Origin: Escherichia coli
GTDB taxonomy: Bacteria; Pseudomonadota; Gammaproteobacteria; Enterobacterales; Enterobacteriaceae
Assembly (NCBI RefSeq): GCF_003991155.1
Contig: NZ_CP031293.1
Direction: 5' to 3' (one strand)
DNA length: 64,000 nucleotides
Shown: in pieces, positions 19,036-42,778 of the stretch
How positions within the stretch are numbered: position 1 is the stretch's first letter
How the letters are laid out: the number at the start of each line of letters is the position of its first letter
Notes under the pieces: generated by a model
Database searches by the model: none
Told to the model about the DNA's origin: nothing
Seen by the model: only the letters and a program-made list of their open reading frames with translations
Made by a program: the position numbers and the translations under genes

Positions 19036-19641
19036 TTATTTGATGTAGTGGACGTGCTCGCAAATCTCTTCCACGATGGGATCGCGGCGTTCGGCGAACA
19101 GCTTTTTGTTTTCGGCTATCAGGTTGTTGCCGTGGGTATCAATAGAGACAATCAGCGGGCCGAACTCTTTGACCCGGCAGACCCACAGTGACTCCGGCAT
19201 CCCGAGTTCTGTCCAGTGCACCTCTTCAATCTCTTCCACCTGGGTTGCCGCCAGTACTGCGCAGCCTGCCGGGAAAATCACATGCAGCGCCTTGAATTTC
19301 TGGCAGCCTTCTTCGGTCAGCGGCCCCATTCCGCCTTTGCCGACCACCAGTTTCACGCCGGTCTGTTCGATAAATTCACGTTCAAAACTTTCCATACGCA
19401 TACTGGTTGTCGGGCCGACGGATACCATCTCCCATTTGTCGCCGTTTTTGCGCACGATGGGGCCAGCGTGGAAAATCGCTTTGCCGTTGAGATCGTAAGG
19501 GATCGGACGTTTGAGTTCGATCAAACGACGGTGACAAACGTCACGGCAGGTCACCAGCGTACCGGTCAGGTAGATCACATCGCCGACGCGAATATCTTGC
19601 AGATCTTCAGCTTTGATCGGGGTTGTCAGGATCTTTTTCAT
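19036..19641 (-). CDS. ttdB: L(+)-tartrate dehydratase beta subunit
   Basis: 201 aa fumarate-hydratase class I C-terminal-like. Confidence 0.88.
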
Positions 19642-40494: not shown

Positions 40495-40700
40495 GCTTAT
40501 TCTCAGGGCGGGGCGAAATTCCCCACCGGCGGTAAATCAACTCAGTTGAAAGCCCGCGAGCGCTTTGGGTGCGAACTCAAAGGACAGCAGATCCGGTGTA
40601 ATTCCGGGGCCGACGGTTAGAGTCCGGATGGGAGAGAGTAACGATTCTGTCGGGCATGGACCCGCTCACGTTATTTTGGCTATATGCCGCCACTCCTAAG
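40495..40700 (+). promoter_or_regulatory. FMN riboswitch (RFN element) in ribB leader
   Basis: Conserved RFN core ...agggcggggcgaaattccccaccggcggtaaatcaactcagttgaaagcccgcgagcgctttgggtgcgaactcaaaggacagcagatccggtgtaattccggggccgacggttagagtccggatgggagagagtaacg... upstream of ribB. Confidence 0.85.
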
Positions 40701-40746: not shown

Positions 40747-41400
40747 ATGAATCAGACGCTACTTTCCTCTTTTGGTACGCCTTTCGAACGTGTTGAAAAT
40801 GCACTGGCTGCGCTGCGTGAAGGACGCGGTGTAATGGTGCTTGATGATGAAGACCGTGAAAACGAAGGTGATATGATCTTCCCGGCAGAAACCATGACTG
40901 TTGAGCAGATGGCGCTGACCATTCGCCACGGTAGCGGTATTGTTTGCCTGTGCATTACTGAAGATCGCCGTAAACAACTCGATCTGCCAATGATGGTAGA
41001 AAATAACACCAGCGCCTATGGCACCGGTTTTACCGTGACCATTGAAGCAGCTGAAGGTGTGACTACCGGTGTTTCTGCCGCTGACCGTATTACGACCGTT
41101 CGCGCAGCGATTGCCGATGGCGCAAAACCGTCAGATCTGAATCGTCCTGGCCACGTTTTCCCACTTCGCGCTCAGGCAGGTGGTGTACTGACGCGTGGCG
41201 GTCATACTGAAGCAACTATTGATCTGATGACGCTGGCAGGCTTTAAACCGGCTGGTGTACTGTGTGAGCTGACTAATGACGATGGCACGATGGCGCGTGC
41301 ACCAGAGTGTATTGAGTTTGCCAATAAACACAATATGGCGCTCGTGACTATTGAAGACCTGGTGGCATACCGTCAGGCACATGAGCGTAAAGCCAGCTGA
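40747..41400 (+). CDS. ribB: 3,4-dihydroxy-2-butanone 4-phosphate synthase
   Basis: 217 aa [42 protein letters not shown]... Confidence 0.95.
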
Positions 41401-41430
41401 AAACCGCTGCTTAATTTACTGCCTTAATCA

Positions 41431-41462
41431 AGAAACCGAAGTTGTAGCAGGCTTCGGTTTTT
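41431..41462 (+). terminator. Rho-independent terminator of ribB
   Basis: gaaaccgaag-ttgtagcagg-cttcggttt followed by ttatttttc. Confidence 0.75.
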
Positions 41463-41661
41463 ATTTTTCCCTGCTATGCAAGATGTTAATTCCGCTTCTC
41501 TTTCTATGAGAAAATTTCATTAATATCAGGCATTCTTTTTCATTATGATCAAAATCATATAATTGTTCCGTTATTATGCGACCATATGAATATATCCGAA
41601 AAAGGATATGTGAAATTTATACGCTAAATGTTTAGTATTGTTAAATATTAAGGGTAAAAGG

Positions 41662-41832
41662 ATGTTTATCGCCTGGTACTGGATTGTATTGATTGCTCTG
41701 GTTGTGGTGGGTTATTTCCTGCATTTGAAACGTTATTGTCGGGCGTTTCGCCAGGACAGAGACGCACTGCTTGAAGCGCGGAACAAATACTTAAACAGTA
41801 CGAGAGAAGAGACAGCCGAAAAGGTAGAATAA
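41662..41832 (+). CDS. Small single-pass membrane protein (56 aa from ATG; track version starts at upstream TTG 41638); identity not confidently recalled
   Basis: MFIAWYWIVLIALVVVGYFLHLKRYCRAFRQDRDALLEARNKYLNSTREETAEKVE: one hydrophobic helix plus charged tail; weak SD; lies in ribB-zupT spacer. Confidence 0.45.
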   Translation: MFIAWYWIVLIALVVVGYFLHLKRYCRAFRQDRDALLEARNKYLNSTREETAEKVE

Positions 41833-41889
41833 GGCTTTCGTGAAGCTGGCAGAAGTTGTCCATGCGCTGGACAACTTCTGATGTTGTTT

Positions 41890-42663
41890 TTAACCAATTC
41901 CCGCCGTTTGTAGCAGCACTAAACTGAATCCCATCACTGACATTCCACATAGTACGCCATAGCTGGGGTTATTATTAGGGTCAATCTCTTTGGCGAGCGG
42001 CATTAATTCATCAACCGAGAGCGCCACCATAATTCCTGCAACCGCCGCCATGATTGCCGCCATGACCACCGGGGAAATCATGCTACCGAGGATTAACCAC
42101 GCCAGCACACCACCAAGAATTTCTGCTAGTCCAGAAATTCCCGCCCACAGAATCGCGGTGCGTTTAGACCCCGTTGCCGCATAAACCGGGCCTGCCACTG
42201 CCAGACCTTCAGGGATATTGTGCAACGCGACGGCCAGTGCGATGCCAAATCCCAGCTCCAGGTTGCTGCTCGCCGTGACAAAGGTGGCAATCCCTTCCGG
42301 GAAGTTATGCAGACTGATGCCGAGAGTGAGCAGAATGGCTGTGCGCTTGATCGATTTTGGCAACGGCTGCACCGATTTTTGCATTAAATCCTGCGGATGA
42401 GCATGTGGCAACATGCGGTCCAGGCCAAAATAGCCAAGCAGACCGAAGATAAACATTCCATAACCCAACACAGGCGACATTCCTTCAGCTGCTAGTGCGG
42501 CAGGAAGCATTTCCATTAATGAGATGAGCAACATGATCCCCGCCGCAAAACCTAGCGAAAACGCCAGTAAGCGGTTCGAGGGTTTTTGCCCGAGAACGCC
42601 GAGAAACGCGCCAATAAACGTGGCTGCCCCCGCCAGTATGGTCAGAATGAGAGGTACTGACAT
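41890..42663 (-). CDS. zupT: ZIP-family zinc transporter
   Basis: 257 aa from [20 protein letters not shown]... Confidence 0.9.
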
Positions 42664-42778
42664 CGACAACTCCTTATAAATCTTCACCTTCAGGCAGATC
42701 GTCAAAATAACTGATGATCATCATCATTGTTATCCGGGTTCTTACTCCGCCGAACAAGCGTATTGTGAGGATATCAAA

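Follow-up and report, generated by a model that had tools for sequence, protein, structure and literature searches.

The yqiD locus

The window analysed here is a 64,000-nucleotide stretch of Escherichia coli DNA (contig NZ_CP031293.1) that contains, at positions 41662–41832, the gene yqiD (b4756), which encodes a small protein and probably has an FNR-activated promoter of its own. The RefSeq annotation places yqiD on the plus strand, with an ATG start codon and 56 codons followed by a TAA stop. The original prediction, made from the letters of this DNA, described an unassigned open reading frame (ORF) of 56–64 codons at 41638–41832, located in an AT-rich spacer of 440 bp behind the ribB terminator. 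The ORF is present as described: on the plus strand, it can begin at TTG 41638 (64 codons) or ATG 41662 (56 codons) and ends at the TAA at 41830–41832. A terminator-like hairpin at 41431–41462 precedes it. The spacer between ribB and zupT is AT-rich, with a GC content of 28–39%, but its length from stop codon to stop codon is 489 bp.

The upstream neighbour of yqiD is ribB (40747–41400), which is encoded on the same strand and ends 262 nt before yqiD. An Rfam scan detects a flavin mononucleotide (FMN) riboswitch upstream of ribB at 40495–40643 and nothing credible at the yqiD locus itself. On the other side, zupT (41890–42663, minus strand), annotated as the gene for a ZIP-family metal importer, is the convergent neighbour; its position provides genomic context only and does not show a functional link. 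The two plus-strand genes are separated by the intrinsic terminator of ribB (41431–41470), which was found by a terminator scan and is formed by a 13-bp stem followed by a T run. A second intrinsic terminator on the plus strand, at 41850–41890, belongs to yqiD. It consists of a 13-bp stem, CAGAAGTTGTCCA/TGGACAACTTCTG, with the hairpin at 41850–41880 and a T-rich run, and it is placed between the stop codons of yqiD and zupT.

YqiD is translated and its N-terminal part is under selection

Segment 41400–41900 of the window is 100% identical to that of E. coli K-12 MG1655, in which yqiD (b4756, YP_009518818.1) occupies positions 3183381–3183551. Translation of 41662–41829 yields the 56-residue product MFIAWYWIVLIALVVVGYFLHLKRYCRAFRQDRDALLEARNKYLNSTREETAEKVE, which corresponds to WP_000469266.1 and is equal to the annotated and published sequence. 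The gene in the window does not differ from that of K-12 in sequence, position, or strand, and it is virtually certain that the ORF is yqiD. The label "unassigned" is therefore incorrect, as the ORF is already annotated in K-12 MG1655, and yqiD has been a known, annotated, and experimentally confirmed gene since 2018. Among 5,426 complete E. coli genomes searched by megablast with 41400–41900, 4,432 contain the K-12-type segment, and "yqiD: protein YqiD" is annotated under the match in every listed K-12-type record. The number of yqiD copies per genome has a median of one and reaches two at most.

Chromosomally tagged YqiD-SPA has been detected by immunoblot in aerated LB cultures, where it accumulates from the native locus with no reported toxicity, and the yqiD ORF was positive in tetracycline-inhibited ribosome profiling (VanOrsdel et al. 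2018, PMC6001520). The same study lists exactly the same 56-residue sequence and coordinates (PMC6001520). Annotation, the published immunoblot and profiling data, and conservation show that yqiD is translated from the ATG at 41662 into a 56-residue protein. The name YqiD also occurs in a paper on tail anchors (PMC5525287), where it is found only in a reviewer's comment beside ElaB; it looks like a slip for another protein, and the gene described here is not meant.

When one genome per species was scanned, 30 yqiD loci were identified in Escherichia, Citrobacter, Salmonella, Intestinirhabdus, Enterobacter sp. kpr-6, Phytobacter, and Kosakonia, and 35 loci from other genomes were fetched altogether. 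Each of the 35 fetched loci has an intact ORF, whose length ranges from 56 to 70 codons among the 30 that were scanned. Convergent zupT is located just downstream in 30 of the 30 scanned loci and is adjacent to yqiD in 33 of the 35 fetched loci, while 17 of the 30 scanned loci have ribB no more than 2.5 kb upstream. Two distant homologues that are approximately 45–50% identical still belong to the gene order hldE-ubiK-ribB-yqiD-zupT-ygiD; one homologue is instead flanked by assT and ygiC and lacks an adjacent zupT. The YqiD family is narrow. The 108 relatives identified in a protein search are all from Escherichia, Citrobacter, Salmonella, or unnamed metagenomic sequences, and only 22 clusters were matched when 1.84 billion cluster representatives were searched with a profile. 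A 125-residue metagenomic sequence (P0118) consists of the first ~70 residues of ZupT fused to a YqiD-like C-terminus. Because yqiD and zupT are convergent, the fusion is most likely an artefact of assembly or gene calling.

The rates of non-synonymous (dN) and synonymous (dS) substitutions were calculated by the Nei–Gojobori method with the window sequence as the reference. For codons 1–42, comparisons with Citrobacter and Salmonella give dN values of 0.05–0.13 and dS values from 0.8 to more than 2, which are often saturated. The corresponding dN/dS ratios are approximately 0.03–0.1 for Citrobacter and Salmonella and reach 0.24 for Kosakonia and Phytobacter. By contrast, codons 43–56 compared with those of other genera have dN values of 0.8–1.9, approximately equal to the saturated dS. 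The pattern shows that selection acts on the N-terminal 42 residues, which include the hydrophobic helix and the KRYCxAFRQDRDALLE segment, and not on the tail, which drifts freely. Eleven residues are invariant across 22 sequences of the family, and the total length of the homologues varies from 56 to 74 residues owing to the length of the tail. The original prediction, which had left the choice between a genuine small protein and a chance ORF to such analyses, is answered in favour of the protein: conservation and dN/dS, determined here, support coding, and the other two tests that it proposed, an epitope tag and ribosome profiling that maps initiation sites, were already published (PMC6001520).

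Approximately 950 of the 5,426 complete E. coli genomes contain a very divergent yqiD allele that is labelled only as a "hypothetical protein". Three loci that bear on this allele (L033, NZ_CP148423.1 228000–243000; L032; and L041) were compared with 41400–41900 of the window and with locus L042. The divergent allele differs from the K-12 type by a dS of ~1.4 over codons 1–42, and its tail is replaced, whereas the flanking ZupT protein is identical. In strain FCI23 (NZ_CM172721.1 766582–772727), the insertion sequence IS1 has removed part of a fimbrial operon together with the promoter and the 5′ part of the variant yqiD. The gene is therefore dispensable in at least one clinical isolate.

Start codon and leader sequence

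The ATG at 41662 is preceded by a leader block of invariant or near-invariant columns at 41629–41654 (plus strand), which comprises TGTTTA-N4-TGTTAA (41629–41644) and the Shine–Dalgarno sequence AAGGG (41650–41654). AAGGG is positioned 7–8 nt before the ATG across the aligned loci, with 7 nt in the window. The original prediction had called the ribosome-binding site weak; its strength is indeed modest, but the site is conserved. The stretch from TTG 41638 to ATG 41662 is highly conserved DNA with an A4/A5 length polymorphism and other 1-nt insertions and deletions. An upstream in-frame ATG is found at the same position in 18 of 32 loci, all of them from Citrobacter, and an upstream in-frame TTG in three Escherichia loci, namely the window, L002, and the E. 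coli variant L032. In 12 of the 32 loci, including other E. coli, other Escherichia species, and Salmonella, the upstream TTG or ATG is out of frame or there is no in-frame start. Conservation of the leader block does not depend on its being in frame with the ORF, which identifies the block as a non-coding signal. The conserved start, as judged from the alignment, is that of the 56-codon ATG form, and the conserved bases upstream of it are interpreted as a translation-initiation or regulatory signal rather than as codons.

The TGTTTA-GTAT-TGTTAA sequence (41629–41644) forms a near-invariant direct repeat just upstream of the Shine–Dalgarno sequence. Its assignment as a PhoP or ArcA direct repeat is rejected, because its period is 10 bp, as opposed to the 11-bp period of both. 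The supplements of the ArcA chromatin immunoprecipitation (ChIP) paper contain no mention of zupT/ribB. A further palindrome, ATATCC-GAAAAA-GGATAT (41592–41609, plus strand), is located at the predicted transcript start and may form a 5′-terminal hairpin. In the alignment, 75% of its cells are paired and three of six pairs are changed on both sides, which amounts to weak covariation; RNAalifold predicts no consensus structure for the 5′ leader. The element could stabilise the 5′ end as a hairpin of 6 bp or serve as a second operator.

A conserved FNR-like box in front of yqiD

Alignment of the 160 nt preceding the ATG from 21 loci reveals three conserved blocks amid otherwise diverged DNA: a palindrome, a −10-like element, and the leader block described above. 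The palindrome ATGATCAAAATCAT (ATGAT-N4-ATCAT, 41545–41558, readable on either strand) is a candidate FNR box whose centre, at 41551.5, precedes the ATG by 110.5 nt. The box is conserved as TATGATC(A/G)AAATCAT, and the distance between its centre and the ATG stays at 108.5–111.5 nt in every one of 29 loci, which are the window and 28 loci from Escherichia, Citrobacter, Salmonella, and Intestinirhabdus. The palindrome retains the TGAT-N4-ATCA core of the FNR consensus TTGAT-N4-ATCAA. A symmetrised position weight matrix (PWM) derived from 62 other ChIP-bound FNR sites (Myers et al. 2013, PMC3688515, Table S6) assigns it a score of 12.4 bits, the second-highest on both strands of the 64-kb window. 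The bare TGAT-N4-ATCA core occurs five times in the window, whereas 1.1 occurrences are expected. Judged against the consensus sequences, the spacing of the palindrome is wrong for boxes of Fur, Zur, and NikR, and these three candidates are rejected.

The best PWM match of the whole window is TTGAGTTCGATCAA at 19511–19524, with 15.3 bits. Overlapping TGAT-N4-ATCA matches, TGATGATCATCATCA, are also found at 42712–42726 in the divergent zupT-ygiD promoter region, where ATGATCATCATCAT at 42714 scores 9.9 bits.

Downstream of the palindrome lies a candidate extended −10 element, TGcGACCAT (41577–41585, plus strand), in which the TG, the A at −11, and the AT at −8/−7 are conserved and from which a transcription start near 41592–41594 is predicted. 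Since the element ends at 41585, a start near 41592–41593 would place the centre of the palindrome at −40.5/−41.5, which is the class II position of FNR. Published ChIP data point to the same site. All four peak callers applied to ChIP-seq and ChIP-chip data found an FNR peak at U00096.2 position 3181647, described as "5' of zupT/ribB" (Myers et al. 2013, PMC3688515, Table S5), and a sigma70 ChIP-seq peak at 3181649, described as "end of zupT/ribB", has a value of 1002 under anaerobic and 395 under aerobic conditions (adjusted p = 7e-83; Table S2 of the same paper). The target of the FNR peak was given as "Unknown" (PMC3688515, Table S9). With the conversion from U00096.2 to the window anchored on the site sequence listed in Table S6, both peaks fall on the predicted −10 element, at approximately 41586–41588 and ~75 nt before the yqiD ATG. 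The predicted FNR site listed in the same paper, TTGATCATAATGAA (41539–41552, minus strand; U00096.2 3181683; PMC3688515, Table S6), overlaps the palindrome by eight bases and scores 10.95 bits with the PWM. It is present only in K-12-type Escherichia alleles and absent in other genera.

The region has features of class II FNR promoters of the narG, dmsA, and nirB type, with which it shares the TGAT-N4-ATCA core, FNR occupancy in vivo, higher sigma70 occupancy under anaerobic conditions, and a weak or absent −35 element combined with an extended −10. It differs from the class II consensus in the outer positions of the box, which are swapped (A...T instead of T...A), and its transcription start is a predicted one. 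Conservation together with the published ChIP data makes it probable that yqiD is transcribed from its own FNR-activated sigma70 promoter. No description of the palindrome at this orphan FNR/sigma70 peak, the likely promoter of yqiD, was found in the searchable literature. The segment 41462–41692, from the ribB terminator to codon 11 of yqiD, has been cloned as the yqiD promoter fragment in a green fluorescent protein reporter (2025 preprint), and yqiD is counted among the genes with RNAs capped by nicotinamide adenine dinucleotide (2026 paper), which is compatible with a transcript starting with A. The Cappable-seq supplementary text has no entry for a yqiD start at the expected coordinates.

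The homologues that lack the palindrome share another upstream motif, (TTG)CTACTTATAAAGTGGTA, located ~60–70 nt upstream of the gene (loci L029–L031, L034, and L036). This motif suggests that regulation may be different in that clade.

Predicted membrane topology of YqiD

The translation contains one hydrophobic helix, which the original prediction had described together with a basic/acidic tail, followed by a basic segment and a charged tail. The hydrophobic stretch comprises residues 2–20/22. The transmembrane helix, FIAWYWIVLIALVVVGYFLHL (codons 2–22, 41665–41727, plus strand), is predicted from the sequence and by AlphaFold2, and its N-terminal end, predicted to be periplasmic, carries a conserved W-Y-W motif. 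In the family alignment, W5 is invariant, and Y6 and W7 vary only in the Phytobacter/Kosakonia group. The helix is followed by a basic membrane-adjacent segment, H-x-KRYC-x-AFRQDRDALLEARNK (codons 21–42, 41722–41787, plus strand), which is predicted to be cytoplasmic and in which R24, C26, A28, R30, D32, R33, D34, and A35 are invariant across the 22 sequences. Residues 21–42 contain seven positive and three negative charges, whereas the variable charged tail (codons 43–56, 41788–41829, plus strand) contains two positive and four negative ones. The near absence of an extramembrane N-terminus, together with seven lysines and arginines within 20 residues after the helix, suggests an N-out/C-in orientation according to the positive-inside rule. 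YqiD is very probably inserted into the inner membrane as a single-pass protein with this topology. AlphaFold2, supplied with the 22-sequence family alignment, predicts one continuous helix of residues 3–55, with the highest confidence over residues 11–20. The C-terminal part may continue as an amphipathic helix.

YqiD and 13 of its relatives have only sub-threshold matches in Pfam and NCBIfam scans, driven by the hydrophobic helix. The best Pfam match reaches 19.8 bits against a cut-off of 27.7, so that YqiD does not qualify as a member of DUF2621, DUF4381, or DUF6526, and the match to NCBIfam NF038143 reaches 18.2 against a cut-off of 50. Several orthologues from Salmonella and Citrobacter are named "DUF4051 domain-containing protein" by NCBI and UniRef. 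The DUF4051 model is absent from the copy of Pfam that was searched and is matched by none of the 14 family members that were scanned, and the label gives no functional information. Sequence and profile searches of the PDB found no chain matching YqiD, including in solved complexes.

Proposed function of YqiD

AcrZ, MgtS, MgrB, and MntS are proteins of approximately 30–60 residues with one helix, stress- or condition-specific transcription, and no enzymatic domain, features that they share with YqiD. The small single-helix proteins CydX, AppX, and CydH (YnhF) of cytochrome bd oxidases are made preferentially at low oxygen. With fewer than about 60 residues and a single transmembrane helix according to the sequence and AlphaFold2, YqiD has the build of such modulators, and by this analogy there is an even chance that it modulates a larger membrane protein, like AcrZ, MgtS, MgrB, or CydX. 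The likeness to the pairs AcrZ–AcrB, MgtS–MgtA/PitA, MgrB–PhoQ, and MntS–MntP is one of general features, with no sequence similarity, and membership is not claimed. The genes of CydX, AppX, and CydH are located within or next to the operon of the respective complex, and the proteins are visible in solved structures; unlike them, YqiD has no matching PDB chain and is not part of an operon.

In the mechanism that we propose, yqiD would lie outside the ribB transcript and would be transcribed from a sigma70 promoter of its own, with an extended −10 element. FNR would activate the promoter in the class II mode from the ATGAT-N4-ATCAT box centred ~41 bp upstream of the start, so that the synthesis of YqiD would be basal in air and would increase under low oxygen. 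Transcription would stop at the hairpin at 41850–41880. The protein would then bind a larger membrane protein by its helix and the conserved membrane-adjacent segment and alter the activity or stability of this partner. This combination of the known gene yqiD, an FNR-activated promoter, and a small membrane-protein modulator is the best overall explanation of the locus, and we consider the chance that it is correct to be slightly better than even.

Several points weigh against the proposed mechanism. The box ATGATCAAAATCAT matches the FNR consensus at only eight of ten positions, and its PWM score is at the low end of those of the bound sites, which range from 11.0 to 21.0 bits in the training set. 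The −41.5 spacing is built on the predicted extended −10 element. No FNR-dependent change of expression has been reported for the locus, where yqiD was unannotated at the time of the experiment. Detection of YqiD-SPA in aerated LB (PMC6001520) implies basal expression for which FNR is not strictly required. The palindrome is absent in the Phytobacter/Kosakonia group and in two more distant homologues. As for the protein, Cys26 is lost in the most distant homologues, the structure model is of moderate confidence only (mean predicted local distance difference test score, pLDDT, of 73), and membrane insertion, topology, and the existence of a partner are predictions.

The alternatives that concern the nature and the transcription of the gene are improbable to different degrees. 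The probability that the ORF arose by chance in the AT-rich spacer and is neither translated nor selected is practically negligible: a short reading frame in DNA with 28–39% GC that belongs to no Pfam or NCBIfam family above threshold could be of this kind, but translation has been demonstrated by immunoblot and ribosome profiling (PMC6001520), the dN/dS of codons 1–42 is 0.03–0.24 at saturated dS, and the ORF is intact in 35 of 35 other loci and syntenic in seven genera. It is highly improbable that the real product is the 64-residue form starting at TTG 41638 (MLNIKGKR-MFIAW...), the longer of the two versions in the original prediction. The in-frame TTG of K-12 and the other in-frame starts at this position would permit it; however, the frame is broken or lacks a start in 12 of 32 loci, the additional stretch contains the conserved Shine–Dalgarno sequence of the ATG, and both RefSeq and the tagging study (PMC6001520) use 56 residues. 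The genes ribB and yqiD share a strand, with yqiD 262 nt downstream, and are neighbours in most loci, which would also fit yqiD as a distal gene of the ribB transcript that is controlled by the FMN riboswitch at 40495–40643 and acts in riboflavin metabolism. This arrangement is very unlikely, as ribB is followed by a strong terminator and a separate sigma70 ChIP peak is located in front of yqiD (PMC3688515). Furthermore, a four-gene chaperone-usher fimbrial operon, encoded on the opposite strand, is inserted between ribB and yqiD in ~950 of the 5,426 E. coli genomes (~18%), and in these genomes the palindrome, the −10 element, and the leader stay attached to yqiD. The ribB terminator and the retention of the upstream block across the intervening operon both argue against control of yqiD by the riboswitch. 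In E. whittamii and E. albertii, the ygiL-like subunit gene of the operon is directly upstream of yqiD; there, too, yqiD keeps its upstream block, and their yqiD is K-12-like.

Two further alternatives concern the function of the product. A type I toxin-like hydrophobic peptide, or a locus with a chiefly RNA-based role, such as antisense action on the 3′ end of zupT, would agree with the small size and hydrophobicity of YqiD and with the overlapping transcripts of several species, in which the stop codons are ~20–40 nt apart and no hairpin is present. Nevertheless, yqiD is single-copy (median 1, highest 2), syntenic, and vertically conserved, and selection acts on its amino-acid sequence; the tagged protein accumulates from the native locus with no reported toxicity (PMC6001520), and the locus has no antisense small RNA or Rfam match. 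Type I toxins are toxic when expressed, have an overlapping or adjacent antisense RNA, and are often multi-copy; for yqiD, this alternative is scarcely credible. Modulation of the neighbouring ZupT, by which YqiD would tune the import of Zn2+, Fe2+, and Co2+ under low oxygen, has more in its favour. The tail-to-tail adjacency of the two genes is retained in 33 of 35 loci, including those of homologues that are ~45–50% identical, and conserved His21 and Cys26 are positioned at the boundary between the membrane and the cytoplasm. FNR is likewise an activator of feoABC, which encodes the importer of ferrous iron, and metal transporters are tuned by small proteins such as MntS and MgtS. However, the genes are convergent and not co-transcribed, one homologue is located between assT and ygiC without zupT, Cys26 is not conserved in distant members, and the yqiD family is confined to a few genera (22 clusters), while ZIP-family zupT is far more widespread than these genera. 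A specific role in ZupT modulation is therefore unlikely. A combined reading, in which the orphan peak is the yqiD promoter and anaerobically induced YqiD binds ZupT or another inner-membrane transporter to adjust the import of divalent metals on loss of oxygen, is likewise unlikely. If true, it would assign a function to a small protein that has so far lacked one and extend the FNR regulon by a post-translational arm.

Surrounding features

Most Escherichia, Citrobacter, and Salmonella loci retain a hairpin, of varying sequence, between yqiD and zupT; it is absent from loci in which the two stop codons are ~20–40 nt apart. The latter arrangement, without a terminator hairpin, is found in several Citrobacter species and in Intestinirhabdus, Enterobacter sp. 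kpr-6, Phytobacter, and Kosakonia (loci L009, L017, L022, L025, and L027–L031, at ~2670–2740 in each). The convergent yqiD and zupT mRNAs of these species must therefore overlap at their 3′ ends. The fimbrial operon between ribB and yqiD in the genomes with the divergent allele is ygiL/yqiGHI-like. In K-12, such an operon is located between ubiK and glgS, and the YgiL-like subunits of the two are 59% identical. Segment 41399–41469, which includes the ribB stop codon, 3′ untranslated region (UTR), and terminator, has a sub-threshold Rfam match to STnc240, a Salmonella small RNA candidate, with 29 bits against a gathering score of 55. The 3′ end of ribB that matches STnc240 may give rise to a 3′ UTR-derived RNA.

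Implications

The evidence that yqiD is a coding gene is now explicit with respect to its start codon, the selected region of its product, and the limits of its family. The FNR and sigma70 peak that was left without a target in 2013 coincides with an FNR-like box that is deeply conserved and precedes a gene annotated later. Finding a function is the main obstacle for most small membrane proteins of E. coli. For YqiD, low oxygen offers a concrete hypothesis of when the protein is made and may serve as the starting condition in the search for its function.

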